A stretch of DNA of 64,000 nt, from assembly GCA_903813345.2 (NCBI GenBank), contig CAIIXF020000001.1:5952001-6016000 (forward strand). The letters run 5' to 3'. The stretch's first letter is position 1. Every line of letters starts with the position of its first letter. The notes below the pieces were generated by a model. The model worked only from the letters and a program-made list of their open reading frames with translations, was not told the origin of the DNA and did not search any database. Source of the stretch: Owenia fusiformis (lineage: Eukaryota). Made by a program: the position numbers and the translations under genes. Positions 34,101 through 62,964 of the stretch are shown piece after piece.

Positions 34101-37100
34101 GTGAGGAACTGCCCGGGTTATTGACTTTTCCGTGCTTTCCAAGCCACACACTATCATCTCGCTGAAAACATTACACAACATATATCCATGTAATGAGATT
34201 TTAAATCATCTAGAATTAGAGATAGTTCATTTTGTGAGAATTGCAATGTAATTGACAATGTTAAACATAATTTTTATGAGTGTACAAAAATAAGGGATAT
34301 ATGGAAATTTTTTGATAATATCATTTTGAACAAATTATAGGAATAAATAAGTATAAGAATTATAAAGAAGTCCATTGTTCTCAAACTGTGACGTCATTAT
34401 ATCCATGGTTATAACAATTGATTTAGGAATTTGTAACTTTTCGAAGTTTCTGTTAATGACCCCCAGGAGGGCAATACAAATTTTCAATATAGACAAAACT
34501 GGAAGTATAGATGCTTATTTTGAAAAAGAAAAACTGTACAGAAATTAAACAATGTAATTAGGCCTATGTATAATGTATAATTGTATATGTTTTATTCTTG
34601 AAATATAGTTTTTACAAAAAAAAAATCATCTCGCGGAAGTCTCATATGCTTTGAGAAGTCCATTTGAAAAAAATATTTTAACAAATCGTGACTTTTCAGT
34701 CCAATTACCGCAATTATATCGTGTTCAACAACTAATATCTAAGTCTAACCATTGGTTGCTAGTTGAAAGCCCTTGGTTTAACAATTAATCATTTAAGATC
34801 ATATTGGGACAAACATATTTCACACAATAACTGGAGATCAAAAGGGAATAAACTCCAAACTAGCGCTGGGTTCTAAATTAAATTTTTTCTCAAGTTCATG
34901 AATTCTAATATGGGACGATCCACACCCTTAATGAGGGGAGCCCGGCCTATGTATTCATGCACCATCAATTTTGGATCGATTTTCAAAACTATAATTTTAT
35001 ACAGTGGATGCAGCACCCACCTGAGATTTTAAAAACAGGCTTGCACCCATCAGAGATTATGCTCCCACTTGCAATTAGAAAAATCATGTAAAATGGGCAT
35101 ATTTTGTCTTGATCAACTTTGGACTAAATTGTGAGAATTTTGCACCCACTTGAGAAAAAATCCTGGAGAGAACACTAGTAGAATGAGGCTTTTCTTTTCA
35201 ATTTCTGAAATGCATTTGTTCATCTGTGGGTCACTAAAACAAAACTTTGCCTCGAATCAAAATTGTTATCTAATGATAATCATTATCGCCATCACTTGGT
35301 TTATTTCTGACACAATTTGCCATTTCAACATTACGGGAACCTGAACCAACTTTTTCCAAAGTTGTCTCTAATATTTTCGAAATTGTACATTATCAAGGAC
35401 ACAGGGGGAGGGGATATGGGATGATGTGTTTTTATTCATAAGGTATGTATGCTTACTTTGATCACATTATTTAAGGAGTAACATCACAAAATCATGAATT
35501 AATTATAAGCGCTGGCCGAAGATGAGCTACCATTCAATTTTCCACATACTTGGCGGAATATACATGGACATCAAACCTAGTCGGGGCCACATATGTCTGA
35601 TAAGAAATAAGGCCCAGACTAGGTTTAAATTGTTGAACTAAGTCTGAATCAGTTAAACTGCTTCATAATAACCAGGTTATTGATGTATATGTATAAGTGT
35701 ATTTTTGGGCTCACACAGTGAGCCTATTGGATCGACTAGTTCGAGTTTACACACCCCGTGGATTGCAACCCAGAGATTCTACTTGCATTTAAACTTGCCA
35801 AATTATAAGGACTTAAATCATTTGCAGGGATGTGAAACAGGTCTGTATGTGTGTATGAGTACATTCATTGGTGTGGGGAAGAAACATGTTGAACGCTTTT
35901 CAAGACAAACAGGCAACAATGTCTTCTTGCATATGAGACGGATCAAGAAAGAAGTAAGTAAAACTCAGTAACTGCTACCTGTATTTTAATTTACATATTG
36001 TAATTTCACCACCAATAGTGTTTACATATTGTTATGGTCTCCATTTTTGTGACGGCGGTTCGGGTTGGCGGGTGGTGGTTCAGGTGGTTAACATCTGGTG
36101 TTTGTAACAAATTCTTAAAACTTCAAATAACTTAACAAATACGGTTTAGACTGACTTCAATTTTTTTCAAAATCATCTAAAAGTTCTTAGAAGTTCAAAT
36201 CTGACTTTAGATTCCACCTTTAATCAAATGACTTTCTCAAGGTCAAAAAAGTATTTTTCAACTTGCTTTAAATTAACCTTTTTTCAAAATCATCTACAAG
36301 TTCTCGAAAGTTCAAATCTGACCTTAGATTTGAGATTTGACCTTCAATGACCCTCTCAAGGTATAAAAAAGTCAAAAGGTCTTTTTCAACTTGCTTCAAA
36401 TTGATCAAACCTTTTTTCAAAATCACCTACAAGTTCTCAGAATTTCAAATCTGACTTAAGATTTGAGATTTGACCTTCAATGATCTTCGCAAGGTCGAAA
36501 AAGGTCAAAAAGGTATTTTTTCAACTTGCTTCAAACTGACAATTTTTTTCTAATCCTTTTCTTGAAAGGACACATGTGTTCTGACTATGTATCAAAGTTT
36601 CAAAATTATCCAAAGAGAGATTCAGTCAGAATGACTAAACTCAGATCTTGGAAATGGAAAATGAAAATTATGTTGAATCATTTGAAATAACATTTCCTTT
36701 CCAGAAATACAGAATTTCCTTTCCAGTGGTGGCATATTTGCATGATTTTGCTCAACGTGCCTAATATTTGTTTTGATAAATCAAATTGAAGCCATTGTCC
36801 CATCCTATACACTGTAACTAATATTTGTGTTTGGTTTTAGATTCCAAAACAGGAAGATGACCCACCAGCCAAGAAACCTACCAAGCTAGCAATTGGTAAG
36901 TTAAGAGAAGAATCTGAGACAGCAAGCTGATTATCCAAAAGGTCTCTAGAAACAACGAGCTTTTAGACAGGCATTAAGCCATGCTTTTAAGATATCTCTA
37001 AGGTGGGGATATCATGCACTTTGTGTTCTCTTTTGAGATATTACATTTGAGAATGTAATGTTATAAACAACTGCTTGCTCCTGCACATGTATCTCCAATT

Positions 37101-40100
37101 CTTAATTTAATTCGCTTTAATGAACATTTAATAGATACAAAGACAGATACGAAAAAAAATTAATGTCAGCATCACTGTCATTTGTAACGGTTTGAAATTG
37201 ACATTGTTCTTTTAATATGAAAGTGTTGATGACATGTATGCCATAGGGGATAAAACACTTAACATTATACAAATTACAATTCACTTTTCTGCCTTTATGG
37301 CACATATCTTGTAATTTCCATTTTTGCATCTGTAGCAGTTATCTCGAGCCAAGAGATGGTCATCTCACATGAATGCTATCTGTACAAAAATTTCCTACTT
37401 GATCATGACTTCTCTACAAGACTAGACATAGACTGACTTTAAATGCAATGACCACTATCTATTACTCCATGATTTATTCCTACTTAAGCTATTGTAACCT
37501 TTTATGGAGAAATGCCATAAAAACTCTTATTCAAAAATTGTTTGTTCTGGAAAAGAAATTCTTAAGAGCTATCACTTATTCTGATCGTCTAGCTCCTTCA
37601 GGACCTCTCTTTTCAAAACTGAAAATATTGAATATATTTGACATCAATAAACTACAAACCGCTAGCTTTGTTCAGAAAACTGTTTCAGAATCACCAGAAT
37701 TTCCTTTTCAAAAGTTCAAACATTTATTTGTTCCAGGAACAGCAATTCATAATCATGACACAAGAATTAATAAGAATTTAACTGTAAAAAAATCCAGAAC
37801 AGAAATTGGAAGAAAATCAAATGAAACAAGGGGCCCATAACTTTACAATACTCTTTCACTTGATCTCAAAAAATCTAAACATATCAAATCATTTGAACGA
37901 AAGTTAAAGTTTGATTTGCTAAGTCATTATTAGATGTTCTTTGAAAAATGCTTTCTTCTCATTACATGTACTCGTATTTTATATTATGATGCATTTCATG
38001 CTTTGTCATTTTTTTGTTTCCATATAACCGGACTGTTAATTTAATAAATGATATATTGTATGTTAAACATGGAACTTATACACCCCTCGGGGTGTCTTTT
38101 CATGTTAATGTAAGATACTGTATCTGAAACATTTGAAATAAAGTGAAGTGAATTGAAATTGAATTACATATGTACAAAATGTCCATGCTGCAATTGAAGG
38201 TGTTGAAGGTGGCTTTGATGTTGATGACAAGAAGTATACAGTAGAAGAGGTGAACTCTATTGTTGTTCTACCAGAATGGACAGTCATACCACTACCTACC
38301 ACAGACATACCAATGATGGTGAGTCATTTGGGTGACCCTGATAAATGCAATCCTCTGATATTGGAACTACTTTTTGTATTATGGTGGAGCTTTTTGAGTA
38401 AATTAAGAGTTCTCCATGCGTGGACCAGTTGTGTGCTTTTATTGCATTAGTCCACTCCGCATGAGGATTAGAGTGTGAATCCAGAGGAAAATTATGGGAC
38501 ATCATTTTTCATGTTACTTTAAGTTTTTTTACATATTTTTATGAATGAGAGTATGCTTATGCGGCAACATGATTTGTAAAAAAATCTAAGTGATTAATGC
38601 TAAATAGACCATTATTTCACAAATGGAATTACACAAATTCAAGAAAATTCCTCCAAAATAGTAAATGTTATTTGAAAATTAGACATGCATTTTTGGGCCA
38701 CCCCTTATCTGTCAAAGATACACCCATAAATACAATTTTAACACATGAGATTCTAGATATTTTTTTATGAAGTCCTATTATTATGAAAAGCTCAGTTAAA
38801 ATCATTATTCTCTTTATGAATAAGCCAATGTAAGTTCTAGTTTTGCATAAATATTTTGTGACTTCAAATCAAATGTAGTCTTCACCATCTTATGCATTCT
38901 GAATTATGCATTGATATTATGATATGTTTTAGGTTTGTAAACATCAAATAATGAATCTATTTAATGTTTTAGGCACAGCTGTCAAGTGCAGCTATTATTG
39001 CAGCTGAGTCTGCAGCTAAGGCTGAAGAGGCTGCAGCCATGGCAGACACTTGGGAGGGAGAAAAGAGGGTCATCTCGAGGTGTGTATAATGAAATATATT
39101 GGTCCCGGAAAGGAGTAACCAGCAAGTATTTTGTAGCTAAATATGTATACACTGAGTTTTCGTGTTTTAAGGAATGGTCTCATGAAGTGTTCATGGTCTG
39201 GTGTAAGATGATGCCACATGTCATCGTTCCATCGTATTACCATTTGCCTTAATAGTCAAAACTTAAGTTTGCTTATAATATACTGTAGATTTGTGGATTC
39301 TTAGCACCAAGTGTTCAATCAGTAGTGACCTTAAGATACATGTTTGACCTTTCAAAGTACTAGTATTTTCTTTGATTCTCTCTTTGTTCCACCTGTCTAG
39401 GCATGCTGCAAACTTGCTTCAACTCGACAATGGTGTTAAGATTCCACCAAAGGGCTGGGTTTGTTCACGTTGTGAGCTGACTACTAATCTATGGGTGAAC
39501 CTGACTGATGGTACCATCTTGTGTGGCAGAAAGTTCTGGGATGGCAGTGGGGGCAATAACCATGCAGTTGAACATTACAACGAGACCAAGTACCCCCTGG
39601 CTGTCAAGTTGGGTACAATCAACCCAGATGGAGCAGGTATATAACATATATATGATTAACCATTTACAACATACTGTAAAACGGGTATTGTTAGCGAGGG
39701 GTAATTGTTAGCGATTGTTAGCGATCGCTATAGAAACTACATGAATACTAGTATTTAACCTTTAGCGTGCTGCCGGCGGACTCGTCCGCCGAGACTAAAA
39801 TGTCTCTCACAACTGCCGGCGGACCCGTACGCCCGATTTCAAACTTTTAAAAACTTTACTTTTTCGCGCCATTCGTATTGTCCAATTAGATTGCCCGATT
39901 TATTCAGTGCCTAACATGACTTCCTGTTGACCTAGAAATGGCGATATTTCTAAAAATAATTCTCAATTCAACAATTTAAACAGTGTTTTAGTCGTTTTTA
40001 GTGAACGAATCGTACAAAATGGTGGACAAATACGATCACAACGAAAATGTGGAGGAAATGGATTACGATTTCGAGCTCTTTAGGCTCTTGGAAGCCGATA

Positions 40101-43100
40101 ACGGTCATCGAAAATAGAAACTAGAATATTTTCTGAATTGAAAAATTGAACATTCGATCGCTGCAAATTCAGATTTGGATTCTGACCAGACGAAGAGGCG
40201 GAGCGGCGGATTTCGGAGGAGTATTCATGGTATATTTATGCCCAGTCGTGTTAATGTACGAAAAAATTCATGAGAACATTTTTTTTCATGAGCCAGGCCA
40301 CTGTATCTTCCCTTTGTGAAAATTTTATCCAGATTCATTCAGTAGTTATTGAGATATTAATTATTTAGTCCAGGCATATCATTTTTTGCACTCTTTGAAA
40401 AATAAGCCAGTTGCGTGGGATATATTTGCTGAAATAAGGCAGCATGGTAAAGGTTAAGGAGCTTTTCATTCAGTGCTCAACTTCCGGTTTGTAATTTGAA
40501 AAAGGTAAATATTTTTAAATCGTATGTTTCTTTCAATATCTGAAGGATAAATAGCCATCCATCAGTGAAATAGTATTAGTAGTAAATATATTGATAAAAG
40601 GTGTTAATTGAACACGGTGCAACAACCAATGATATTGCTTAAATTCTCCCGTACCAAAAGTGAGCAACATGAATGATAAAATTTCTAATGCATTTCGCTA
40701 ATTTGATTTTTTAAAGATTAATCTTCATTTCACTAAAATTTCTCGCGCTAAAACCCCCTAAAATTGAAAAATCGCTAAAATTTCCTGGTGTCAAAATTAC
40801 ACGTTTTACAGTACTCCCCAAAACTTTGAAGATGTTGCATTTCTAGGAAGAGTAGGCATAGATTCATTTAAAATGTTAGTGATGAATCTGTAAGTTCTAG
40901 TTATTATATATTATACCACTCTAAGTCCAATTACAGTTGTATAACATGGGGCTATAACAACGATATACAGTGGAGAGTGGTATATCGTCATCGTATACAA
41001 CTCCTCCGTATACACTCCAGCGTATACCACTGTAGAAGTGCATTCTGGGAACTAATGAATAAAAAAATCATGAAATTGTTCATGATTTCCTGGAATCAAG
41101 TGACGTCATAATTGGTTCGAGATCAACATCAGCATTATTGAGTTGGCTATGGGATATTTTTATGGTTTTTAATTGTTATGATTGTGTTCGAATCAACTGT
41201 AATTGAACTTAGAGTGGCATAATAAGATTATATAATGGTTCATTCTGTATATCGTGCATTTTATACTCTCGTGAGAATATAATATATTCACTCGTTCGCT
41301 ACGCTCACTTGTGAATATATCATATACTCACTCGAGTATAAAAACGATATACAGAAAGAACCATTATATAACCTCATATTATCTAATACTTTGTGTCAAA
41401 TTGTGCAGCCATATTAACATTATTATGGATGAAACACTGATCAAAATAGTTGAAAATCAAGGATTGTCGACCAAATTCACCTGCTTTGAAGGACACCAAT
41501 GAAATGTTTTACTTTTTCTATGCACAAAATGCTATCCATAATCCAAGAAAAAGGGATGGAAAATGTTCAAAAGTAGTAATAAGATGAGAATGTACTTAGT
41601 GCCTCGTTTGCTGAGTAAAACATAAATCAGTTGCACTGTGAGTCTGTGGCTGGCTACATTCATTTAGAATTCCACTTCCCCCATGAGTGATATGCATATA
41701 CCAGTACTGCTGTACTGTGTTCATCTGATCTTTTGAAGTTAAGTCTTTTGTATAAAAGTGGTTCAAACTAGATTTCAAGTTGTGGATCAATCTTACCAAA
41801 TTGAAGATTGTTTGGATTAAATTTTAACCAAAATAAAATGTTCACTTGCAGATGTTTATTCATATGATGAAGATGATATGGTTGAAGATCCAGATCTTAA
41901 AAAACATTTAGCGCACTTTGGAATCAATATTTCTGCAATGCAAAAGGTAACTCTTGCATGAATTGGATATAATTACTTTCTTGCATTCAAAATGATCATA
42001 TAATGCTTTTGTTTCATGATACAGAATTATTTTGAGAAAAATATCTTGAATGTAAATATTATGTACAATGACTTTGATGTTTAAGTGTGTGGCTGCATTA
42101 AGATTAAGAATATCTTATTTTACTGTTTATATTATAGACTGACAAATCTATGGTCGAGCTAGAAATAGATCTGAACCAGCGTATTGGAGAATGGGACGTC
42201 ATTCAAGAATCTGGAAGTAAGCTTAAGCCTCTCTATGGGCCAGGTTTCACTGGGATGAAGAATCTTGGCAATAGCTGTTATATGAACTCAGTCATGCAAG
42301 TCCTCTTCAACATTCCTGATTTCAAAGCTAGGTGTGTACCATACATGATATCGCAATTTTTAATAGCATATCAGTAGATACAGTAGAGATGAGAACAATA
42401 TTACATTCCATAACAAACAGTATATGTGTGAGTATTTTGCTGTCAAGGTCACTGGACAGTCTTTTGCTGCAAATGAAAAAGGATTGTTGGGCTCATGTTG
42501 TGAGCCTATAGAATCACCAACTTGTGCATATGTTCGTCTGTCAAAATTAGCCAAAAATGTTACAACAATTTTACTATGAGGTAATTACTTGAATTTTATT
42601 AGGTCGGTTTTATTTATTCACGATATGTTTGGAAGTTGATCTACTTTTGCAATTTGATCTACTTTTGCAACCTTACCTATATTTTAAAGGTGACCACTAA
42701 AAGCATAGATGGTGACAGTTTTCAAAATGTATACAGCACCATATGACACGATTCATACATTTGGTAAAAATGTCTTTACTGTATATAAACAGTTGTATTT
42801 ATTATCTGTTCTATTATAAGGTATGCTGATCAAGCTGAGGAGTTGTTCAACACTGCACCAAGAGACCCTACTTCAGACTTCAGCCTTCAAATGTAAGTAG
42901 AACAATATCATGAATAAAGCAGGGCATTCTCAAGATCATTTTGGAAATCTATCATGATCCTTAGAAGAGTCCTTATTGCATGGCCATCACACTAAAGTGA
43001 TACATTTTAAAATTGCAAGATGTATTAAATTGAAAAAACTGTTTTGTTTCAATTTTAGAACTGATTTTGCAGTGGTTTATTGGTCTCAGCCTTTGATCAA

Positions 43101-46100
43101 AATCAATGAATATCTGGCTAATTCATTCAGGATTGTATGCCTGCCAGGTGGTTTTCATTGAAATTGTCTCAAGCCAACTCTCAAAGAATACACTGTACTT
43201 TCTTTTGTGTAAACAGGGCGAAGCTTGGCAATGGTTTGCTATCAGGAGATTACTCCAAGGTGCCACAAGATGGAGAGACAACCACAGAGGGCAATGGTGA
43301 TGAGGGCAAAGAGAGAATTGTGGTAAGTGACAATATTAATGCTATGTTTGGCATTCTATTATTGTGTATTGGCACATCACAGATACTAATACATGTTCAT
43401 GGTTTACAATGGATTCCTTTAGTAAAAACAAAAAAAATCAATATTTAATATGGGTCCTTATTTTTATCTTTGTCAGTGAACTCTGTATTAAGAACATCAT
43501 AAGCTTTCATACACAGGGCCAAAACACATGAATCTAATTGAATAACTGCAGTTACTCTCATCACAAATGGCAGACATATCACTAAACTAAGTAATCAATT
43601 CACAATTGTAAACAACTTTTTGAAATGCTCAAGCCTCTCCAAATTCAGGAATTTGAACGAAAACAGTCTCACTCGGAGGAGTGAAGAAACCTAAGTGGAA
43701 CAGTGTGATAAGAATGATTGAATTGTTTTATTATGATTTAAGACGGACACAGGAATTCGACCCCAGATGTTCAAGACATTAGTTGGTCGTGGTCATCCCG
43801 AGTTCTCTACAAAGAGACAACAAGATGCCCAAGAGTACATTCTGCATCTCTTTAGTCTCATAGAGGTAAGAAGCATATCACCAAATATGCTGAAAATCAC
43901 ATTTACAATGCACTACTAGATAATAGTTACAATACACTGTGCTATTAAATACAAGCCTAGGTCTAAGTGACATTTTGGCTTATAGTGTATGTTAATAGGC
44001 AATTTAGTAGCTCTCAATAATTAATGTTGGAAGATACGATATGATGAACTGATGAATAATGAATAGAAGATTCAGAAGTAGTACATATAGACAAAATTCC
44101 TAAATGATTTATCAATAAATATTGCAGATAATTTCCTGATACTTTGTTAATTGAATTTTGATCACTTGTCAGATTTGAGTCTCCAAATGAGATCGGTGTT
44201 AGATTATGTTCATTTTATCAAGATTACCTTTTGGTCAACCATTTATAAACTTTCAATATATCAATTCCTTGCTTCATGTACCATTGTCTAATATGATATA
44301 TTGTGATTGAGAAACATGTAAAGGGTTATTGCCTATTTACATTGCCTGCATTATCAATTGAGGGAGTTGCATTCAACACTTATTCTTCGAATATGTTCAT
44401 TTAAAGGTAAATCTACCCTTGACTCTTTACAGAAACTAAAGAGTGTTCTGTTTTGTTTATATTATGTTATTTTACCCCTCAGTACTGTAAGCATTAATGA
44501 TTTGTGTTTACTGATGTAGAAAGTTGGACTTCCAGTATTGGGGGGGGGCACAATGGCCCAGACCTGTGAATGGTTATAATACTTTTGCCATGTTTTATGC
44601 TTTATCACCTTACATAAATCTTAGCACAGATTTCTTTTTGTTACTATTCAACAAGAAACTGAAGTGATTCTTTTCCTTTTGATTGTCAGAATGCTTACTT
44701 TACTTATGGGATGGTACACATATTTTCACCACCTTGCTTATTATTCCCGCTTATATTATACATAATAAGCTTTGTTTTGTTCCTGATGCCTAAAGGAAAT
44801 CAAGCCTTATCTAAGGAAACTGAAGTTTTTCTGAATTGAGTTATATTCAAACAGTTTTTAATCCAATATATGAATATAGAAATGAAATACTGTGACTAAT
44901 GTTAATAGAAAGCAAGAATTATGGTGCTAAAGGGAAATTAGAAGAATAACGTACCTTATATACCTTTTCTAATACCCTGTCTTAGGTTCATTTAAATGCA
45001 ACATTGTTTGGCTACTGCTACTGCCAGATATGAAGGTTTTAATCACAATCATAATACTTTTTAATGAGTATTAAACATTCTTATTTGTCAACATCTGTTA
45101 TATTAGTGAAAGTGACATTCTGCCTATGGTATACAATCCCATCTCACTGCACACTTAATTTTTGCTTTATGATCAAAGCAATGCAAGGAGCTCCATATTT
45201 GCTTATTGTGGCTTTAAGATGAACTTTCTCCCTATTTCTCCTACTTTAACTGGCTATATTGTAAGAATGTCCCATACCTTTATGTGTCAAGTTTTTGCTT
45301 CATTGAGGGTTGGAATTGGGTAACGCAGGAATAACCTTACAACTATGGAGGGCTCGAATAGGGATGTTTTGCTGTGGAAACAGGGGCTCTACCTGCAAAA
45401 ATGATATTTCAGCTCTATCTATACACACAATCGCTGATACATGTAGATCTATGATACATTCAAATTTTTCAATCATGTTCATGTTTATAATTTGGCTTAC
45501 CCTTTTGAAGCCTTACTTCAATAACTTATTCCTGATAGTATTGTTTATAAGCCATTTACTGTTTACCACCTGCCTTGTCCCAGGTGCCGTGCTTATCTTT
45601 CTGTATGGCAATACAAAAAGACTCAATATATATGCATTACTGCAATCTCTCATATGCATATCATCGGTTTTCCTTGTTCCAGGGTCAGGAACATATGCAT
45701 TTAACCCAACATTATCCAAACTGTTGTTAATGCTAGCAGGTGACGTTCACCCTAATCCAGGGCAACTACACAATAACGAAATTAATGACTTAAGCTTTAT
45801 GTTCTCAAATATCAACAGTATTTTTGCAGATTCTGGTGCACGCTTTGAAGACTTAAAACAACGAGCCTTTGACCTAAAACCTGGGGTAATAGCTTTATGT
45901 GAAGCTGGAAATTTTATTAATAAACCAACAGATTTTGACCTTCGTCTGGGTAACTTTAAACATCCAGTCTTCTCTAATCTTGGTCGAGGACTTGCAATCT
46001 ATGTTCACGATGACGTTCCATCCAAGCCTCTTAGTCCAGACCTGTACATAAAAGATCTTGATATTCTTTTCACAGAATTAACATGTGATCATAAAAGTAT

Positions 46101-49100
46101 TTTGTTTGGGGTCTGCTACAGATCCCCCAGTCAGAATGCAGAGGAAACTCGTGCATATTTTAATAGGCTTAACCGTCAGCTTGACATAATTCAAAATAGC
46201 ACAAAAAAGTTTGACCACATTTTGCTCATGGGAGACTTAAATGCAAAACATCCTAACTGGTATAAAAATGACAAGAACTTAGCAGGAGAATTATTCCTGG
46301 AAACTCTAAATACCAATTGTTTTGACCAAATTGTTGACCAACCAACAAGAATAACAAGTACTTCTAGCACATGCATAGATCATATTTTTACAAATTCTTG
46401 TGAACAAGTCAAATCCTGGTCAGTTATTGATCCAATTGGTAGATCTGATCATGGAACACTTCTTGCTTCTTTAAATCTCTCTAAACCTAGGCATCCTCCT
46501 ATTAGGCGTATAGTCTGGCAATATGACCGTGCAAACCCTGAAGATCTTAACAATGTTATTAGAAATACCGACTGGCAATCTATTTTGAACTCACAAGATA
46601 TTGATACATTAACATCTACCTTTACGGAAACATTATGGTCAGTTTATAAAGACCAAATTCCAAATAACTTTAAGATTACAAAATCAAATGATCAACCATG
46701 GTTCAATGAGAAATTAAGAGTCGAGTCTATCAAAAAACGATCACTTTATAAACGCTATCAAAAGAACTCAAATCCAATTAATGACCAACTTTACAAAACC
46801 CAAGCAGAATTGGTGACAAATCTTATTAAGGAAGCAAAACTGCGGCATGAAAATAAAATTTTTGAATCTGTTGAAAAACTCAATAAAAATGACAAAAACT
46901 TTTGGAAACTAATTACCTGTCTAATTGGAAAAGGCAAAGCACATTCAAACATACCAGCACTATTTAATAGTAATGGTGATCCAATTACATCAAATTTTGA
47001 CAAGGCCACATCATTTTTAAACTTTTTTGTTGAGAAATATAAAAATGACACTCCACTTAATTACGAGCCAATTTTCCCCATGAGAACAAATTCATTCTTG
47101 ATGTCAATACAAACTAATTTTGAAGAGGTCATGAAAATAATTCTAAAACTTGACAGCTCCAAAGCCTGTGGCCCGGATAAAATAACTAATAAAATGCTCT
47201 TAATGACTGCACATACAATATCTCCTCCTTTAGCTGACCTTTTTAACAAGTTACTCAAAAATTGCACTTTCCCGAACTCCTGGAAAATTGGAAATATTTG
47301 CCCCATTCACAAAAAAAATAATAAATCAGAAATATCGAACTATCGACCCATTACACTATTGAGCTGTCTGTCAAAAATTTTTGAAACTATTGTCGCTGAC
47401 AGAATTAAAAACCACTTGATTTCAAATGACCTTTTGTTTAAATTTCAATCAGGGTTTCTGCCAGGGCACAGTACTCAGGCGCAGCTAGTCGCCATTGAAC
47501 ATCTTATACAAACTAATTTGGATAAAGGAAAGGGAATAAAAGCCCTATTTCTAGACATCGCGTCAGCCTTTGACTGTGTGCCACATAGACTTTTACTCTT
47601 AAAAACAAAATCATATGGTATAGGTGGCCAAGTTCTCAAAATGTTGAAGTCATATCTAAATGATCGCAGAGTTAGGGTCACAATAGCAGGCACTTCCTCA
47701 CATTTATCTGAACCAAATGCTTTAAAAAAGCGGTGTCCCACAGGGGTCAATATTAGGCCCCTTGCTTTTCCTTTTATTTATAAATGATCTACCGGATGAC
47801 CTTGACACAGACTGTTTCATCTATGCTGATGATACCTCAGTATATTTTCCATTTAGTACTCAAAATCCAAAAGAAATTGACGATAAAGTAAATGAATCTA
47901 TAAGAAAAATTATACTTTGGTCTGAAAAATGGAAACTTAGTTTTAAACCCGAGAAAACGAAAGAAATAATATTCCATAAGTCAAAAATTCAAGGAAACGG
48001 GCCAATATATTTAGATGGTTAAAAAATCATGCTGTTGACATATGTTTCCTGCAAGAAACATTCAGCGTTAAAAAAGTTGAACAACAATGGAAAAATGAAT
48101 GGAACTCTGAATGCTTCTACAGTCATGGATCAAACCACAGTAAAGGTGTCATGATTCTTTTTAATAAAAAACTTGATTACGAAATTCTTGGTATGGTGAA
48201 AGATGATAATGGTAGACTTTTATTAATAAATATGAAAATAGAAGAAACTGAATATAGTTTGTTAAATTTATATTCCCCAAATGATGTAAAGCAGCAAGTT
48301 GAATTTTATAGGAATGTCAACCAAAAACTCAATCAACATAGTATGGAAAATATCATTATTTGTGGAGACTTAAACTGTGCATTAAGTAACATTGATAAAA
48401 GAGGAGGAAAAGAAGTAACAGATAAAATAAAGGTAATTGAAGAAATTAACATAATAAAACGTTCGCATGATTTGTGTGATATTTGGAGATACCAACACCC
48501 CAATGATAGAAGATTCACGTGGCATAATCCTGGATACACTATCCAATGCCGACTAGATTATATATTTGTCAGCTCACATTTAATAGACTCAAGTACAAGT
48601 GACATTATAACTGCCCCATCCCCAGACCATCTTGCCACAAATTTAGTAATTCAAACTAAAGATTTTAAAAGAAAGGGAAAAGGCTTTTGGAAATTAAACA
48701 CTAGTTTACTAAACGACCCTAAATTTAAGGAAAACATTATATCTGAAGTAAATAGAATAAAAGAGGAATATAACAACATAGATGATGACAGATTGAAATG
48801 GGATATGTATAAAATGAGTATTAAAAATGCATGCATCAAATTTTCTAAACAAATAGCCCAGAATAAGAGGGATGAAGAGAAAAAAGTCTTAATGGAGGCA
48901 AATCTTGCTCAATTAAAGTTTGATAAGGACCCTTCATGCGACAACAAAAATGAACTAAATAAAATTAAATTAAAATTAGATATAATTCAAGATAGAAAAA
49001 CTAAAGGACACATTTTAAGAAGTAAAGCAAGATACTATGAAGAAGGTGAACATTCTACTAAATACTTTTTCAACTTAGAGAAAAAGAATAACATAAACAA

Positions 49101-51951
49101 AGTAATAACAAAATTACAAAATGAAAACAATGAAATAATAACAGAACCTAAAAACATTCTTGAATCAGAGAGATTATTTTACAAAAAGTTATATACCTCA
49201 ACAAAAGCAATAACTAACTCAAAGGAACAACAAGAAAACCCCTTCTTCAATAAAGACAATGTACCTAAAATTAATGAAAACGATAGAGAAAAACTTAATT
49301 CAAAAATAACAGAGGAAGAATGCCACAAAATAGTTAAAAGCTTCAAGAAAAACAAAACACCTGGAATAGACGGATTCCAGGCTGAATTTTATTTAACTTT
49401 CTGGAACCAAATAAAAGATCAACTAATGAAATGTTTTGAAAAAGCCATATTAGAAGGAGAATTATCAATTACACAGAGAAGAGGAATAATAAGCCTTATA
49501 CCAAAAAAATCCAAAAATAGAATGAAATTAGCAAACTGGAGACCTCTTTCATTATTAAATACAGATTATAAGATTTTTACAAAAATATATGCAGAAAGAT
49601 TAAAAGGTATTTTACATAAGATTATTAGTACAGACCAGACAGGATACATAAAAGATAGGTTTATTGGAACTAATGTTCGATTGTTAAATGATTTATTAAA
49701 ATATAGCGACGAAAAGAATGAAAAAGGTCTTTTTCTATTTGTTGATTTCCAAAAAGCATATGATAGCATTGAATGGCATTTTATAGAAGATACAATCAAA
49801 GCATTTGGATTAGGCGACAAATTTTTAAATATTTTTAAAACAATTTATAAAAATAGTGAAAGCTGCCTTTCAAATAACGGTGAACATTCTGAGTTTTTCA
49901 AGTTAGAAAGAGGTGTGCGACAAGGAGATCCTTTATCCGGAATTCTTTTCATTATGGCAATAGAAACACTAAGTATAGCGATCAAAAAGAAAATTGAAGT
50001 GAAAGGAATGACGATCAACAACCAGACAATTAAACTTACACAATATGCTGATGACATGACACTAATACTAAGAGACAAAGATTCAACAAAAGAAGCGCTG
50101 AAATTATTTAGATTATTTGAATATCACTCTGGACTAAAATTAAACAAAGATAAATGTGAAATATTGTGGATAGGAAGAGACAAAGATAAAAATGAAGACA
50201 TAGAAAACATTAGATCAGTTAGAAAATCAACAGCATTAGGTTATTGCTTTTCACACTTACGAATAATATCTGAAGAAGTAAATATAAAACAAAAAATTGA
50301 AAAGATCAAGAGTAAACTGAATATATGGACAGGTAGAAACTTAACAATTCAAGGGAGAATACTATTAGTCAAAAGTATAGGTATCTCCCAAATTATAAAT
50401 ATAGCTTCAGTAACAACAATACCAGATAAATATATACAAGAGATAGACAATATTATATTTAACTTTATATGGAATAATAAACCCCCAAAAATTAAAAGGA
50501 AAACAATAATAGGTTTATATGAGCAAGGAGGCTTACAAATGGCAGAATTTAGGATTATTAACAAAGCAATGAAGACCGCATGGGTTAGAAGATTAAGTAA
50601 CGAAGACACTGATGCTAACTGGAAAATTATACCACACTACCACTTGAATAAATTAGGAGGAAATTATCTATTTGACTGTAGATACAATATAGAGAAGCTA
50701 AAGATAAAAAATGAATTACCTGATTTTTACATTGAGGTTTTGGAAGGATGGTCTAAAATTCAAGAAAATACACTAAATGTACCTGACAACAAAATTGTGA
50801 TACAAGAAGAACAAATATGGAACAACAAAAACATTTTGATTGGTGAAAAATCGTTTTTCTTCCCGAGATGGTACAACAAAAATATTAAACAGATAAAAGA
50901 TATTATAACGGAAGATGGAACATTTCTCACAAAACAAGAAATAGAGAACAAGTACAACATAGACATTCAAGACCTTGATTATAACGGATTACTAACTGCA
51001 GTCCCAACAACATGGAAAAGAGAATTGAAAAATTTTGAAAAAGTGGAAACCACAACAAATAGAGATAATACAATAAAACCAATGAATATAACATGTAAAA
51101 TTGCAAAAAAGATTTTCACAGCAAAAGAGTTTGTTGCCCCTACGGGAATACAACATTTGAAAAATGACTTAACAGATGAAGATATAAAATCAACATTTAT
51201 GCTACCTAGAAAAGTAACAAAAAATGTTAATCTCCAAATTTTCCAATTTAAAATTTTACATAATATACTTGTTTGCCAAAAAACGCTGCATAAAATGGGC
51301 ATAAAAGATTCACCGAAGTGCCCAAATTGTAATCAAATTCAGGACATTAAACACATGTTGGTGGAATGTAAATATGTAAATTGTATTTGGCAAAGTTTTT
51401 CAGAAATAATGGAAAAAGTAGGGTACAAGGCGAGATTGTCGGATAAAGATAAATTATATGGCCACAAACCAAAAGACGATGAGTACGACAATTTTAATTT
51501 TGGCATTATACTTGTCAAGTACTTTATATATAAAAATTTCTTAGGAGAACAACTACTAAATGTACAAAGTATGAAAAATTTCCTGAAACATTATATTGAA
51601 GTTGTCACATACAACAAGGTAGAGAATAAATTAACAGAAATATACGACAGACTTTAAAGGTAAAGGTTAGCTTTTTGTTATTTAGTTTTTGTGTGAATAA
51701 GTATTTGCATGATAGGAATGAATGTCAGTAAGAATGTGAGTAGATGGATGATTTGTTTAGGTAAGTATATTTACAATTATATAAAAACACATTAGGCTAC
51801 ATAATACAAAGCATAACACAACACCAAATCCAAAAATATAGAAACAGTCTTTGCAGCATGACATAACATAAGAAGGGTGTTCATCTTATATATTATCAGA
51901 TCAATATTAGTCAAAATGCATGTTATTAATTGTAAATATAATTATCTAGGA

Positions 51952-51992
<41 letters not shown>

Positions 51993-53474
51993 AAAAATTC
52001 AATTATCACAGGTAAGTGAAACAGTCATGAACAATATACCCATTGATCGTGTGAATTCACAGAAACACTTAGGATTTATATTTGACAAGCACTTGACAAA
52101 TGAAGCACACATCTTGTCAATTCGAGATAAAGTAAATAAAATGATCAATCCGCTTAAGTCTCTACAACGAAATCTTACATCTAAATCTTTGGAAACTATT
52201 TTTGTATCATTCATAAGACCACATTTTGAATATGGTGCCATTATTTTTAACTCTTCGAATAAATACCTTCTCAATATTTTGAACCAATGCTTTTACCAAG
52301 CAGCACTTATCTGTAGCGGCTGTATTCATGGAAGCAGCACAGAAAAAGTCATTGATACACTTGCATGGACACCTCTTGAGACCAGAAGGGATATGCAAAT
52401 TTTGAGATTTATGTATCGCGTAAATCACAATTTATGTCCAAAATACATTACCGATATTTTTGAGCCTTTAAAAATTCAAAATGCAAGAACATTAAGACAT
52501 AAGATAGACTATAGATTGCCCGCAAAATGCTCAGATAAATTGAAAAAGTCGCCAGCTTTTAATGCTGCCTCACTGTGGAACAGAGCTCCACAATATCTAA
52601 AAGAAAGTCCAAGTCTTCCTATCTTTAAAAGTCGCCAAAAAAAACTTATCCAAGAATCAAAACCTAAATTTGACCCTACAACCAAACTAAAGCTTACCAG
52701 GAACTTAGAAATCGTACTAAACAGATTCAGAGTAGATCTGATTTTTAAAGCCCAACTATATGCACACAACTTTACCACTTTAAACACTCCCAACTGTGCA
52801 TGTGGATTACCTGAAACCCCAAAACATGTCTTTTTTAGATGCCCTCAAAATCTTGCAAGCAGAACAATGTTTTTTAATAAAATCTCAATATACAAACCAA
52901 ACACTATCAAAAATGAAAACCAAATTATGCATTTTTTGAAATATGGAAGTAATGACCTTTCAATCCTTCAAAAGAATGAACTTTTTGAAAACGTTGCAAA
53001 CTTTATCCAAGAAAATATGAAATAAGACCCCTTCCATAGTTTTTCTGTATCATCCTCATCTCCCTTTTTGCCCTCATGGAACCAAAAACTTGACACCTAA
53101 CTCTCATTCTTAGCCAGACACCCCCAGTTCTTCTATGCCACAATGGACAAAATGCTGTTCCTAATTGTATAAAATATAAATTATGTATTTAAGCTTGGCC
53201 TATAATGCCACTAGGCGATTGGCAAGCAATTCGATGTAAATTTGAATATCATGAAATAAATAGTTTATCATATATAAAAAAAAAAAAAATATATGTTTAT
53301 TTACTTATTCCTATTTCCAGAGAAACAGTCGAGGTAGTGTCAATCCCACTGATGCCTTCAGGTTTTCTGTGGAGGAGCGTATACAGTGCTCTCAGTCCAA
53401 AAAGGTGCGCTACACCAACAGAGATGAGTTCATCTTGGAGTTGCCTATACCTCTAGAAGCTGCTACTAACAAGG
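28153..53474 (+). CDS. USP5: Ubiquitin carboxyl-terminal hydrolase 5/13 (isopeptidase T), partial; exons 28153-28251, 35828-35953, 36841-36895, 38200-38318, 38973-39079, 39401-39636, 41852-41946, 42138-42331, 42821-42892, 43217-43322, 43743-43865, 53321-53474; continues beyond the window
   Basis: Twelve GT-AG exons join in phase (1486 nt, about 495 aa). They give [42 protein letters not shown], ZnF-UBP ([52 protein letters not shown]), Cys box [16 protein letters not shown] and [18 protein letters not shown]. The UBA domains and His box were not found in the window. Confidence 0.95.
30153..30940 (-). mobile_element. Decayed 3' fragment of a Tx1/L1-clade LINE
   Basis: ORF 30348-30818 has [36 protein letters not shown] (zinc-knuckle region); T-run (reverse poly(A)) at about 30154. 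Confidence 0.7.
32405..33374. mobile_element. TTAA-flanked foldback element (Kolobok-like termini)
   Basis: TTAA|GGTGCCATGGAAGTTAAC ... GTTAACTTCCATGGCACT|TTAA; arms pair over about 330 bp once the insert at 32535-32745 is removed. Confidence 0.7.
32535..32745. mobile_element. Small MITE with CAC termini and 5-bp TSD (ATCAT), nested in the foldback arm
   Basis: ATCAT|CACACTACTATACCT ... AGGTATAGTAGTGTG|ATCAT; the empty site ATATCATTTACA is seen in the related copy at about 12360. Confidence 0.8.
36050..36560. repeat. Fragment of the tandem-core repeat family also at about 230-520, 1130-1480 and 57155-58810
   Basis: Repeated AGTTCTCAGAAGTTCAAATCTGACCTTAGATTTGAGATTTGACCTTCAATGA..AAGGTCAAAAA motif. 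Confidence 0.65.
37448..37933 (+). mobile_element. 3' fragment of a CR1/L2-group LINE in USP5 intron 3
   Basis: [50 protein letters not shown] is typical of the post-RT region of these LINEs; stop at 37840. Confidence 0.7.
39674..40811. mobile_element. TA-flanked MITE (CTGTAAAACG termini) hosting a nested piggyBac-like MITE
   Basis: TA|CTGTAAAACGGGTA ... TTACACGTTTTACAG|TA. Confidence 0.7.
39759..40453. mobile_element. piggyBac-like MITE
   Basis: TTAA|CCTTTAGCGTGCTGCC ... GGCAGCATGGTAAAGG|TTAA. Confidence 0.75.
40911..41378 (+). repeat. Hairpin-rich interspersed repeat, copy A (inverted copy B at 58843-59387)
   Basis: Long near-identical reverse-complement match to 58843-59387; internal hairpins such as TTATATAATGGTTC..GAACCATTATATAA. 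Confidence 0.85.
47993..51987 (+). mobile_element. Young 5'-truncated Tx1/L1-clade LINE nested in the CR1/L2 element
   Basis: 15-bp TSD AAGTCAAAAATTCAA at 47978-47992 and 51988-52002; AATAAA at 51951 followed by about 35 A. Confidence 0.93.
47995..51657 (+). CDS. LINE ORF2 (APE endonuclease, reverse transcriptase, CCHC knuckle), uninterrupted but lacking its first few residues
   Basis: Frame is open from 47995 ([22 protein letters not shown]) through [52 protein letters not shown] and [13 protein letters not shown] to the stop at 51657. Confidence 0.9.
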   Translation, partial: KRANIFRWLKNHAVDICFLQETFSVKKVEQQWKNEWNSECFYSHGSNHSKGVMILFNKKLDYEILGMVKDDNGRLLLINMKIEETEYSLLNLYSPNDVKQQVEFYRNVNQKLNQHSMENIIICGDLNCALSNIDKRGGKEVTDKIKVIEEINIIKRSHDLCDIWRYQHPNDRRFTWHNPGYTIQCRLDYIFVSSHLIDSSTSDIITAPSPDHLATNLVIQTKDFKRKGKGFWKLNTSLLNDPKFKENIISEVNRIKEEYNNIDDDRLKWDMYKMSIKNACIKFSKQIAQNKRDEEKKVLMEANLAQLKFDKDPSCDNKNELNKIKLKLDIIQDRKTKGHILRSKARYYEEGEHSTKYFFNLEKKNNINKVITKLQNENNEIITEPKNILESERLFYKKLYTSTKAITNSKEQQENPFFNKDNVPKINENDREKLNSKITEEECHKIVKSFKKNKTPGIDGFQAEFYLTFWNQIKDQLMKCFEKAILEGELSITQRRGIISLIPKKSKNRMKLANWRPLSLLNTDYKIFTKIYAERLKGILHKIISTDQTGYIKDRFIGTNVRLLNDLLKYSDEKNEKGLFLFVDFQKAYDSIEWHFIEDTIKAFGLGDKFLNIFKTIYKNSESCLSNNGEHSEFFKLERGVRQGDPLSGILFIMAIETLSIAIKKKIEVKGMTINNQTIKLTQYADDMTLILRDKDSTKEALKLFRLFEYHSGLKLNKDKCEILWIGRDKDKNEDIENIRSVRKSTALGYCFSHLRIISEEVNIKQKIEKIKSKLNIWTGRNLTIQGRILLVKSIGISQIINIASVTTIPDKYIQEIDNIIFNFIWNNKPPKIKRKTIIGLYEQGGLQMAEFRIINKAMKTAWVRRLSNEDTDANWKIIPHYHLNKLGGNYLFDCRYNIEKLKIKNELPDFYIEVLEGWSKIQENTLNVPDNKIVIQEEQIWNNKNILIGEKSFFFPRWYNKNIKQIKDIITEDGTFLTKQEIENKYNIDIQDLDYNGLLTAVPTTWKRELKNFEKVETTTNRDNTIKPMNITCKIAKKIFTAKEFVAPTGIQHLKNDLTDEDIKSTFMLPRKVTKNVNLQIFQFKILHNILVCQKTLHKMGIKDSPKCPNCNQIQDIKHMLVECKYVNCIWQSFSEIMEKVGYKARLSDKDKLYGHKPKDDEYDNFNFGIILVKYFIYKNFLGEQLLNVQSMKNFLKHYIEVVTYNKVENKLTEIYDRL

Positions 53475-58810: not shown

Positions 58811-58842
58811 TATCACTGTGTGTCTTGTTTATATAACGTATA

Positions 58843-59387: not shown

Positions 59388-60876
59388 TGCATTTTACAAA
59401 ACCAGCAATGACATTGATTTTGTAACGATAGCAAACATTTACATTTGCACGTTAGACGTTGGTGACTTCCTTACTTTTCAAAAATATTTTCACCAAAGAA
59501 TCGTATTTAAAAAGAATCAAAATAAAAGGTATCGACTGACATACATCAACTAGGCTCAAGATAAATTCACAGAAATTGCAAATAGAAGTTAGACAGTACC
59601 CACAACCAAAACTTAAACCCACAAATGAACAGTAGTGTTGTGAATGTGTGATAATAGAGGATAATTGATAAGTATGTCATTTATATGGCATAATTAATGT
59701 GTCAGTAAAAGATATATGAGAATTTGAACAGTCTCCAACTTTTCTGAGAAAGTGGTGGTGTTTGGCATTTGGCTTCTGTGAGGTGGTTTCATTTTGCATG
59801 TTAAAGGACAACAGAAATAGTAATTTAATCTTTTAATAATGGATGTATTATATTTGGATATCTCATCTTATCAATAATATGGCAACTTTTTCATTTTACT
59901 AAACACGGTAATGCTAGAAAGCAATATTTAGGAAATGGTCTGTGACATATTTTGGCCCCCACATGTTCTTTCAGTGTGGCCACTTGGCCCATTTTGGTCC
60001 TTTGAATCATGACGCCATAATTCCAAGATGTTTTGTTATTTGTTTCCATAACAATTGAGAGATTTTGCACTGAGTTCCCTAACTTCATTATCAGGAATTG
60101 GTGGCAGCTAAGAGTATAGATTGACAGGAATATCTAGAAGCTTTGGCAAAATATCTTGTAAAATTCAAAAATTGCTACCACCTTGACAAACTAAAAAGTT
60201 ATGTTTTCAGCTCTTTTTGGTCATCCAAAAGTATTCATTCAACTGCAGTCTAGCTTCGCTTATAACTACCTTATTTTACAAATAAACAATAATGTTTACA
60301 ATTTTCGACAAAATATGTCACAAAGATTCAAAATGGCCATCATTTTTATTGTCATTTTAGATATTACTTTATATGTTATAAAATCAAAATATATTGCATT
60401 GATTTGGTTGATTATACAGGTACATTGTGGCAAAGTGTTACGTTAACAATAATACCTAGAATGCACTTTCACGATGTGAGCCCAGTACCCATGGTATTAT
60501 TTATTCTAGTTTGGCTATAGATCCAAAAGTATTACATTGATTTGCTAGAAATTTTCACTATTAAATGCTTGTTGTCAGAATATCATTTTTTACGATATGT
60601 TCTTAGAAATGTTACAATCAACTCAGTTTAATGTTAAGTCATTTAAATATTCTAAGTTCTTGTATTTAACATTAAATATGCATGCATGACAATTTTTAAG
60701 AAGGGGTTAATAAGTCTGTCAATAGATTGAAAACATAATCTTCATCTGAATTGTACTCCAGGCATATATTTCTAACATATATTTGACAACTGTGTATTAT
60801 TCCTATTTCCCAAATTCAGTGGTATTATGTAGGAGAATCACTTCACCTTCACAATTTACCATATGGGTTATAATTG

Positions 60877-61254
60877 TCACACTAAGGTCTCTTTGCCTTC
60901 TAAATGTTCCTCATTTGTTGGCAGACTGAGATTGATCAGAGCAACTGACTCACGGCGGTTTCTGATAATAAAACTATCTCTCTTTACAAACTCCTCGTAA
61001 TAATATGAGTAACGTGCTTCATTCCGCTGACTACTAACATAGCGTACCATTAGTACTACTATTGCCAGGGCATAGAAAGCCAGAACAGCAAGGATATACA
61101 TGAATGCCTCAAATGGCTGGTAGTCTTCCATTGGGTTGGTCATGTTCTTATGCATACTTGTGTTCAGTGCCTCTTCGGAAAGGATCAATGCCGTTGCATA
61201 TGTTTGATTATGTTGTATAAAACGTAGAGTAATTTCCATGCCTTCATTCAACAT
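60877..61254 (-). CDS. 125-aa single-pass membrane protein, KCNE/MinK-like, antisense within the presumed USP5 intron 12
   Basis: ACCACCATG start context with a CAG acceptor about 17 nt upstream. Three N-glycosylation sequons (NQT, NTS, NMT) precede one hydrophobic helix AFMYILAVLAFYALAIVVLMV, followed by RYVSSQRNE..YSYYYEEF. This parallels the KCNE layout of TM helix + YIRSKK.E + aromatic/acidic segment. Confidence 0.65.
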   Translation of the reverse strand: MLNEGMEITLRFIQHNQTYATALILSEEALNTSMHKNMTNPMEDYQPFEAFMYILAVLAFYALAIVVLMVRYVSSQRNEARYSYYYEEFVKRDSFIIRNRRESVALINLSLPTNEEHLEGKETLV

Positions 61255-62566
61255 GGTGGTTATTCTAACACCTGATGTCCTGGGTTTTTATGTATCTCAA
61301 TATAGTGAATTGAATCAATTAATTCCTGTATTTCCGTTGTTCCATTATAAAGTTGATGACACTTTGACATACCCCAATTTATGTTTAGAACAGATAGCAT
61401 TTACTTGTCGCTTACCCAACTCTCCACTGGATATCATAGCCTTTCCAATGCAGACTCATTCTATCACTTTGCTCCAATGCTCAAAAATCAAGTCACTAAT
61501 AAATCCTTTTAGTGAAGATTGCCATATTTATGGTTTACTTTTTCAAGTCTCAATGTTCTATATACTGTTTTCCTTAACTGAGTGTTATGAAAGTGTCCAT
61601 ATATCATTGATTGTGCTGATCACTGCGTGCAGGTTCAGGAACTAAACTAATGATGTTGATATATGGCACAGTCGCATCTCTCTCTGCAGATATCTTATGT
61701 CTTAGGATTGTCATTAAAGTAAAGGTTTATTACATCCTTTAAAACATTTATCACTGTAACCCGGTTGATTTAATGAGCAACTTTATCTTTGTTCTCTAAG
61801 ATGATGTTATGAGCCTCCATACTTTGAGAACATATTTGTATTATTACACGCACATAAAAACCATAAACTATAAACTATCATTACATCTCATTGGATTCTA
61901 GATATTCAATCAATTTCCTATTAAAGCCAATACATCCTTTTCTGTCTTCTAATTAATGCAAATCTTTCCTCTGATACTGTCTCTCATCAGCTAATGTCAA
62001 GTGAAACGGAATTCAATATACAAGCTTTAAGAGCATCATTATCTCAAAATTACTTAATTCACAAGAATTATCTAGAGAGAGAGAGAGAGTAAAAGCTGTT
62101 TAACACATAATGTTGTATGAAGTATGTGTTATTTATTGCCTATCTATGACACTTACTGTGATAATGTGAGGAGTATTCCCGAATCGGGATATCAAATCTG
62201 ATTTATATCCAAGACTGAATTGCCATGTATACATATAGTAGTGTATTAATACAGATTTGTTGCCTACAATGCTCTCTGACATTTACTTTCATGTTGTTTA
62301 GTCTCCCATTCGATATATATATAGATATATCCGATGAATTGTATGTCTGTAATAAGAATGGGTACATCCTTTGTTTTTACAAATATTCATTTCCATGAGA
62401 GAATCTTAAAGACATTCATCATATGCAAATATCATTATCTCTAAGGTCATGATGTTGTTACTTATACTTCTTAGAGTCTAGATCAACAATAACAACAGCC
62501 AGCAATCCTCTTTATCCTTCACAGCTCTACATGTACATTGGAAGTATAAAGTAATATGAGCATGCT

Positions 62567-62964
62567 CACTGGTACTCACCTAGTTTCACTGACGACACGT
62601 CAGCGTAACAAGATGGAAGAACTTCTGGGCTTCGTTTTCGGTAAGATATTTTTATTTATCGATTCCACACCACTTACGAGTCAAGTTATGGATAATAATT
62701 TGGCTCAAAGTTAAGGAAGATAGTGTAGTTTGAGAATATGCAGGTGTTTCTATGTTTGGTATATTGACAAAGATGCAATTCAAATATTTAGTCCTTCGCT
62801 TTTGTTACGTTGACGATCTCCATGAACATTGTCACATTGGCAATATTATTGTCCACAACTTGACTTATAAGTGGTGTAGAATCGATAAATAAAAATATCT
62901 TACCGAAAACGAAGCCTGGAAGTTCTTCCATCTTGTTACGCTGACGTATAGGTGAGTACCAGTG
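62567..62964. mobile_element. Foldback MITE with CACTGGT termini and 5-bp TSD (ATGCT)
   Basis: ATGCT|CACTGGTACTCACCTA ... TAGGTGAGTACCAGTG|ATGCT; arms of about 110-120 bp. Confidence 0.8.

Follow-up and report, generated by a model that had tools for sequence, protein, structure and literature searches.

The KCNE proteins of vertebrates (KCNE1-6 and KCNE0, also known as MinK/MiRP; Pfam family ISK_Channel, PF02060) are auxiliary subunits of KCNQ1 and other voltage-gated potassium (Kv) channels. They are single-pass membrane proteins of ~100-180 amino acids (aa) whose N-terminus is extracellular, glycosylated and without an evident signal peptide, and a single coding exon is the rule in their genes. 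No vertebrate KCNE is known to have a PDZ-type C-terminal tail. According to recent work on KCNE, invertebrates have yielded no kcne gene, and the family originated early in the vertebrates (PMC11659587; bioRxiv 10.64898/2026.04.28.721385). The MPS-1 to MPS-4 proteins of C. elegans are described as KCNE-related single-pass subunits of KVS-1 and other Kv channels (PMC4210162), and have been called nematode-specific. Here we analyze a stretch of 64,000 nucleotides (nt) from the annelid Owenia fusiformis (contig CAIIXF020000001.1, positions 5,952,001 to 6,016,000; hereafter the window). On the minus strand, at 60877-61254, it contains an open reading frame (ORF) of 125 codons with the size and layout of a KCNE protein. 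On the whole we favor the view that this is an intact single-exon gene nested antisense in intron 12 of the USP5 gene, a distant relative of KCNE and a member of a protostome family. That KCNE-like family has its own juxtamembrane block and PDZ tail, and is met here as an apparently unannotated nested gene.

The key features of the ORF (protein P0001) are summarized in Table 1. The frame is uninterrupted from ATG to TGA, an in-frame stop lies 33 nt 5′ of the ATG (61288-61290), and the coding sequence is contained in one exon. Sequons at N16-Q-T, N31-T-S and N37-M-T all precede the sole hydrophobic stretch (~F48-V70), which is followed by R71-Y-V-S-S-Q-R-N-E ... Y84-Y-Y-E-E-F. No signal peptide is evident in residues 1-47. 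AlphaFold2, taken together with the family alignment, gives one long helix over residues 46-107 with disordered ends. The predicted local distance difference test score (pLDDT) is 86-98 over residues 51-90, and 55-57 in the N-terminus, where there is no secondary structure. The layout is that of a single-pass protein, with three sequons ahead of a predicted helix that runs on into the cytoplasm with pLDDT values up to 98. A Foldseek comparison of the model with the PDB returned no match at E ≤ 10, which is not surprising for a single helix. The free C-terminus reads E-T-L-V-stop, and fits the class I PDZ-ligand pattern x-[ST]-x-[hydrophobic]. Judged from these features, the product would be a small type I membrane protein with its N-terminus outside the cell and predicted to be glycosylated, and R-R-E-S103 is a possible kinase site.

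The initial annotation of this locus had pointed to an intact 125-aa frame with a strong start context and an upstream splice acceptor, three N-terminal sequons, one transmembrane (TM) helix and a RYVSSQRNE..YYYEEF segment. All of these are present, and only the acceptor requires qualification. Its AG (cag/g, 61282-61280) lies 25 nt upstream of the ATG and is known as sequence only; assembled contigs from two sequencing runs (X1 and X7, see below) read unbroken across 61265-61370, and its use is thus unsupported. The 3′ untranslated exon and the poly(A) site could not be placed from the sequence alone.

The ORF is almost certainly a real, conserved coding gene rather than a chance frame, because it has clear homologs. 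A near-length word-indexed search with the ORF gave no relatives, and the family surfaced only on exhaustive searching with HMMER, which covered 1.84 billion representative proteins. This returned 144 relatives at E ≤ 1e-3 and six at E ≤ 1e-10, the best having E = 7.4e-19 and 51% identity, so that the conservation on which the initial annotation had made its proposal depend is borne out. The matches all span residues ~46-100 of the query, corresponding to the TM helix plus the juxtamembrane block. A family profile constructed from 71 members without the Owenia protein was then scored on the 1509 stop-to-stop ORFs of the window. The ORF scored 76.9 bits (E = 5.4e-23) and the runner-up only 8.3 bits, so there is no second copy of the family in the window.

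Coding potential was also measured as a codon score, comparing the codon usage of the USP5 exons with the intron background. The frame of the ORF scores +0.10 bits per codon, a value not reached in any of 3000 random intron windows, and the other five frames score −0.22 to −0.44. The GC fraction of the ORF (0.40) lies between those of the intron (0.325) and the USP5 exons (0.45). Within the ORF, a contig of run X1 and the window disagree at five positions. Four are synonymous (H15, T21, S26 and V67), and the fifth is Q17K, which keeps the sequon. The length of the ORF by itself is weak evidence of coding; when the 10.5-kb intron stretch was simulated 300 times with a first-order Markov model, 18 of the simulated sequences had an ORF of 125 aa or more.

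An alignment of 72 family members (A1) shows a variable, sequon-rich N-terminus, a conserved block and a variable tail, with a consensus ending E-T-x-V. The consensus of the block is D-A-F-L-Y-I-V-V-V-L-x-F-Y-A-x-S-x-V-x-L-M-V-K-Y-I-R-R-E-x-E-E-A-x-L-x-x-Y-Y-x-E-F-V-K-R-E-x-F. Four residues are invariant, i.e. Y53, V57, Y61 and R92 in the Owenia numbering, and all four are kept in the Owenia ORF. The first three lie in the TM helix, where A50, I54, F60, L68 and M69 are nearly invariant. The juxtamembrane block is the most conserved cytoplasmic part of the family, containing R92 together with the nearly invariant Y72 and E88; in Owenia the helix reads Y-V-S-S-Q-R-N-E-A-R-Y-S-Y-Y-Y-E-E-F-V-K-R-D-S-F. 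Features were counted on 165 of the 184 family proteins collected, leaving out 19 that did not fit the pattern at the start of the TM helix. One or more sequons lie ahead of the helix in 153 of the 165. The C-terminus conforms to x-[ST]-x-[VILF] in 85 and to [ED]-[ST]-x-[VIL] in 62, and many of the members without a PDZ-type ending are probably truncated gene models from short contigs.

All members that carry a species name are entered as 'hypothetical' or 'uncharacterized' proteins, and they belong to molluscs, annelids and chelicerates. The molluscs are Patella, Babylonia, Mizuhopecten, Pecten, Ylistrum and Pinctada, and the others are the annelid Capitella, the mite Oppiella and the horseshoe crab Tachypleus. 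Examples are CAPTEDRAFT_199433 of Capitella teleta, SNE40_004980 of Patella caerulea, LOC110463311 of Mizuhopecten yessoensis, LOC117325984 of Pecten maximus, FSP39_004547 of Pinctada imbricata and LOC143230476 of Tachypleus tridentatus. Against the family profile these protostome relatives have E values of 1e-25 to 1e-35, or against the ORF 1.5e-9. They have the TM and juxtamembrane blocks in common with the ORF and, for the most part, the type of C-terminal ending. When a tree was built from the core region, the Owenia protein fell in a subgroup of 11 sequences with support 0.83. The members of this subgroup have a short tail and a basic-x-Ser site after the conserved block.

There is also a second, sister subfamily of 17 sequences (A2), in which the helix starts with N-A-Y/W-x-Y-I-L-F-V-L and the block after the helix ends with W-Y-K-D-K-N-L-Y-D. 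The helix start of its members (P0140, P0146, P0156, P0162, P0180, P0193 and others) is nearly identical to that of human KCNE3 as it appears in the PDB alignments. They have one conserved N-terminal sequon within L-Y-x-N-[IL]-[ST], and are without a PDZ-type ending.

It is likely that the family shares common ancestry with KCNE, because the ORF is linked significantly to its relatives, and the relatives significantly to ISK_Channel, in the same region of the protein. For the ORF itself ISK_Channel was the best of six Pfam families listed (E = 0.0013, 18.9 bits), with residues 31-95 aligned on profile positions 25-87. By hand count over the 144 relatives, ISK_Channel matched 89 at E ≤ 0.01 and 30 at or above its gathering score of 22.1 bits, while other Pfam families were scattered and weaker. 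The highest score was that of P0174, with 33.7 bits (E = 3.5e-8). This protein bridges the two groups, with E = 6.4e-8 against the ORF, as do P0135 (28.3 bits on ISK_Channel; E = 1.2e-9 against the ORF) and P0127 (25.9 bits; E = 5.4e-11). The suggestion made initially, that of a KCNE-like protein, is therefore upheld insofar as ISK_Channel ranks first for the ORF and dominates the known families among its relatives, and no better match to an unrelated single-pass family appeared. In the profile search that was proposed with it, 30 relatives pass the gathering score and the ORF itself does not. We describe the protein as KCNE-like and not as a canonical KCNE because the ORF alone is below the Pfam threshold. 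A precomputed PF02060 label is carried by 8 of 53 profile-search matches. Since databases already attach PF02060 to some members, the KCNE link is latent in Pfam and goes unremarked in the literature searched.

Searches of PDB sequences gave KCNE chains almost throughout. With the ORF as query, KCNE2 and KCNE3 made up four of five matches (E = 0.11-0.6). With the A1 profile, KCNE1, KCNE2 and KCNE3 were nine of ten (E = 0.037-1.5), and with the A2 profile all five were KCNE3 or KCNE1, the best with E = 0.0079. In the A2 alignment the pre-TM D-D-N-S and Y-M-Y-I-L-F-V-M-F-L-F-A of KCNE3 align with D-x-x-N-A-Y-x-Y-I-L-F-V-L-t-f-Y-A. The alignments of A1 and A2 to KCNE reach past the hydrophobic core, into the acidic stretch before the helix and the Y-x-R basic stretch after it.

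The ORF thus resembles vertebrate KCNE in being a single-pass protein of similar length, with an N-terminus that is predicted to be glycosylated and extracellular. The family and KCNE both have an acidic/Asn stretch at the start of the helix, then aromatic-Y-[IV]-L-x-V and F/Y-A, and Y-[IVT]-R with a basic stretch after the helix. Unlike KCNE, the family has its own juxtamembrane block E-E-A-x-L-x-x-Y-Y-x-E-F-V-K-R and an E-T/S-x-V ending. It is moreover found in protostomes, where the literature places no KCNE. The position of T-V-G in KCNE3 reads A-I-V in the ORF; T-V-G/F-T-L is described as the gating 'triplet'. The MPS proteins resemble the ORF product by description (invertebrate, single-pass and KCNE-related), and there was no nematode protein among the named relatives found.

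A protein language model placed SMIM34A closest to the ORF (0.95, 216/256 features), followed by KCNE1 and SMIM34 (both 0.93), with SRTM1 as the nearest other family (0.92). The chordate cluster of SMIM34/SMIM34A, small integral membrane proteins of vertebrates that are KCNE-like, is therefore the nearest, and 13% of its members carry PF02060; this likeness is one of feature space only, with no alignment or E value. SMIM34 may correspond to 'KCNE6'; the KCNE6 paper never uses the name SMIM34. For a member of the second subfamily two look-alikes, both at 0.89, serve as leads only. These are a chordate cluster of ISK_Channel and a cluster of mollusc proteins, 25% of which carry PF02060.

The host gene was identified by exact matching. 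One USP5 exon matches with 100% identity a protein of 821 aa (P0003) that is entered as 'unnamed protein product [Owenia fusiformis]'. The exons for residues 1-495 of that protein end at 53473, and exact matching found no exon in the window for residues 496-821 of the 821. By collinearity exon 13 should lie beyond 64000. Intron 12 runs from ~53475 to past 64000, and the ORF is at least 7.4 kb into it on the opposite strand. The ORF is thus intronic and antisense, because exon 12 ends at 53473 and residues 496-821 fall outside the window. This is the nesting that had been presumed, and USP5 does not end before the locus, as residues 496-821 remain to be encoded outside the window. The gene had also been suspected to be unannotated. 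The exact ORF protein is missing from a collection of 15 billion proteins that does hold Owenia USP5, and neither the near-length word search nor the family-profile search returned an Owenia entry. The gene therefore appears to be unannotated, although an annotated model with other ends is conceivable.

Introns 11 and 12 of USP5 both contain repeats. Intron 11 of USP5 (45307-53022, plus strand) is full of retrotransposon sequence of the long interspersed nuclear element type. It contains an 826-aa frame with endonuclease and partial reverse transcriptase (45307-47784), an apparently intact 1225-aa frame with endonuclease, reverse transcriptase and zf-RVT (47980-51654), and a 387-aa frame with no Pfam match (51862-53022). 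In intron 12 the repeats at 57234-59573 and 63318-64000 are heavily covered by RNA-seq reads. These reads are mostly 95-99% alike (multi-copy), as from transcribed transposon families, and many joints and loose ends look like copy variants. Over 57234-58871 there is a strand bias, the first mate being on the minus strand at a depth of up to 362 compared with ~20 on the plus strand.

Ten runs, drawn from three studies and only guessed to be RNA, contain 28-70% of the sampled words of the ORF stretch. Depths were taken from the Logan contigs of runs X1 and X7, likewise only guessed to be RNA. They are 31-99 over 60847-61780/62143, against 3-24 in neighboring unique sequence (Table 1). This is a local enrichment of 7-20-fold, with a sharp edge at 60847-60851 that coincides with the donor-like AAG/GTGAAG past the stop codon. 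The edge fits a transcript with no splice on the 5′ side of its coding exon and perhaps one immediately past the stop codon, and the enrichment would also fit an open-chromatin library.

By analogy with KCNE the Owenia protein may well be a Kv auxiliary subunit, a role to which we lean slightly. The N-terminus with its three sequons would face the outside, as the topology of the sequence suggests. From the structures of KCNE complexes, the TM helix might pack on a voltage-gated potassium channel as KCNE1 and KCNE3 pack on KCNQ1, filling the groove that separates voltage sensor from pore. The conserved, amphipathic Y-[IV]-basic ... Y-Y-x-E-F-V-K-R helix would then lie at the inner face of the membrane, where it could tune gating, lipid or calmodulin interactions, or trafficking. 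E-T-L-V may anchor the complex by binding a Dlg/PSD-95-type PDZ scaffold, and R-R-E-S103 could act as a phosphorylation switch. More tentatively, and a little short of what we would call probable, KCNE-type subunits might be an old bilaterian family with several paralogous subfamilies in protostomes, among them molluscs, annelids, chelicerates and probably further groups. One of these would be KCNE3-like at the start of the helix, and another, including the Owenia protein, would have a PDZ tail that tethers Kv channels (perhaps KCNQ) to Dlg-type scaffolds. They would have been overlooked in the literature, and in Owenia by the annotation as well, because they are tiny, single-exon and sometimes intronic.

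Several observations weigh against reading the ORF as a working gene related to KCNE. Those that concern its activity come from RNA. Two raw RNA-seq samples, one with ~12.7 million records (6% of its run) and the other with ~11.0 million (12%), were mapped to 57000-64000, a stretch in which there is no USP5 exon as a positive control. There were zero reads over 60510-62381, with the flanking repeats heavily covered, and expression is therefore absent or very low in the two samples. No run on record as RNA contains the ORF stretch, and the X1 and X7 contigs show no splice joint, strand or transcript end. The zero reads and the lack of a run on record as RNA would agree with the ORF not being a working gene in Owenia, whether it arose by chance or is a copy silenced recently and no longer transcribed, and so would the absence of the protein from the annotated set and the frequency with which simulated introns contain an ORF of this length (18/300). 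We consider this very improbable. A chance origin is excluded by the score on the leave-one-out profile and the 144 relatives. The frame is intact from its strong start context to the family-typical E-T-L-V end, it retains the invariant Y53, V57, Y61 and R92, four of its five polymorphisms are synonymous and its codon usage is exon-like. In addition, contigs from runs of three studies span the ORF, with a depth 7-20 times that of neighboring unique intron sequence.

The remaining points concern the link to KCNE, and would be explained if this were a conserved protostome single-pass protein that is not a Kv subunit, with a helix similar to that of KCNE through convergence or remote ancestry. 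It might act via its PDZ tail, e.g. as an adaptor, a trafficking partner or a subunit of another receptor or channel at junctions or synapses. The matches of this protein and of the family profiles to KCNE are all marginal. At 18.9 bits the ORF is under the Pfam membership threshold of 22.1, its PDB matches are non-significant (best E = 0.11), and against solved KCNE chains the profiles get no further than E = 0.008-0.04 (best values 0.037 and 0.008). The aligned stretch is largely hydrophobic helix, where chance similarity comes more easily, and 55 of the 144 relatives have no ISK_Channel match at E ≤ 0.01. Neither Y-Y-x-E-F-V-K-R nor the E-T-x-V ending has a counterpart in the aligned stretches of KCNE, and SRTM1 too is among the language-model look-alikes. 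According to the literature, invertebrates lack canonical KCNE genes (PMC11659587; bioRxiv 10.64898/2026.04.28.721385). Our search of the literature, from which subscription journals were mostly outside coverage, found no paper on a protostome or cnidarian KCNE. Yet ISK_Channel is the only family that recurs, being top for 89 of the 144 relatives and over threshold for 30, with E values down to 3.5e-8. The PDB matches are nearly all KCNE chains (4/5, 9/10 and 5/5), and the alignments extend into the acidic stretch before the helix and the Y-x-R basic stretch after it. Size, topology, an N-terminus predicted to be glycosylated and a single coding exon all fit KCNE. We therefore regard a protein unconnected with Kv channels as unlikely, and prefer the reading as a KCNE-like subunit.

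Table 1. Positions of the KCNE-like ORF, its host gene and the contigs that cover it. Coordinates are those of the window.
Feature	Position	Strand	Basis or depth
KCNE-like coding sequence (P0001), complete, single exon, 125 codons + TGA	60877..61254	minus	sequence; leave-one-out profile; codon usage; polymorphisms
Start context ACCACC before ATG (ACCACC-ATG-T) and acceptor-like cag/g at 61282-61280	61255..61282	minus	sequence
N-terminus (residues 1-47), predicted to be extracellular, with N-x-S/T sequons at N16, N31 and N37	61114..61254	minus	sequence; AlphaFold2
TM helix, residues ~48-71	61042..61113	minus	alignment A1; pLDDT 93-98; aligns with KCNE1/2/3 TM helix
Juxtamembrane cytoplasmic helix, residues 72-95	60970..61041	minus	alignment A1; AlphaFold2; aligns with KCNE post-TM basic stretch
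R100-R-E-S103, basic-basic-x-Ser site	60946..60957	minus	common to closest relatives (P0122-P0124)
C-terminal E-T-L-V, class I PDZ-ligand type ending	60880..60891	minus	sequence; A1 consensus end ETxV
Two donor-like sites just past stop: TG/GTAAAT (last exon base 60860), AAG/GTGAAG (last exon base 60847)	60841..60860	minus	sequence; contig depth edge
Host gene USP5, exons 1-12	28153..53473	plus	12 exact-match exon stretches, residues 1-495
USP5 exon 12, residues 445-495, last host exon in window	53321..53473	plus	exact match to P0003
X1 contig	60742-60856		depth 3
X1 contig	60847-61370		depth 65
X1 contig	61402-61780		depth 43.7
X1 contig	62005-62431		depth 6.6
X7 contig	60851-61131		depth 98.8
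X7 contig	61265-61370		depth 68.9
X7 contig	61414-62143		depth 30.8
X7 contig	62139-62464		depth 4-8

Some other frames were noted in the window. A plus-strand ORF of 135 aa (61238-61645), which overlaps the beginning of the KCNE-like gene together with its 5′ flank, matches no Pfam family, scores poorly for codon usage on that strand and was taken to be a chance ORF. On the minus strand a fragment at 10118-10480 matches KDZ (Kyakuja-Dileera-Zisupton) transposase with E = 6.7e-7, and the neighboring frame at 11361-11750 has no Pfam match. A stop-free frame of 391 aa on the plus strand (18576-19748) matches no Pfam family at E ≤ 0.001. Three minus-strand frames of 116, 97 and 130 aa within 23452-25373 are Ser/Pro-rich with repeated D-P-R-S-P motifs and no Pfam family, and look like exons of a gene upstream of USP5.

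If the reading as a protostome KCNE-like family is true, the origin of this class of Kv auxiliary subunit moves back to the bilaterian ancestor. It would also provide channel modulators as yet unstudied in invertebrate neurophysiology, for example in Aplysia, Lymnaea, Platynereis and oysters. The PDZ tail suggests a clustering of channel complexes that is not known from the vertebrate KCNEs. Finally, the locus illustrates how genome annotation misses small single-exon genes nested in introns.

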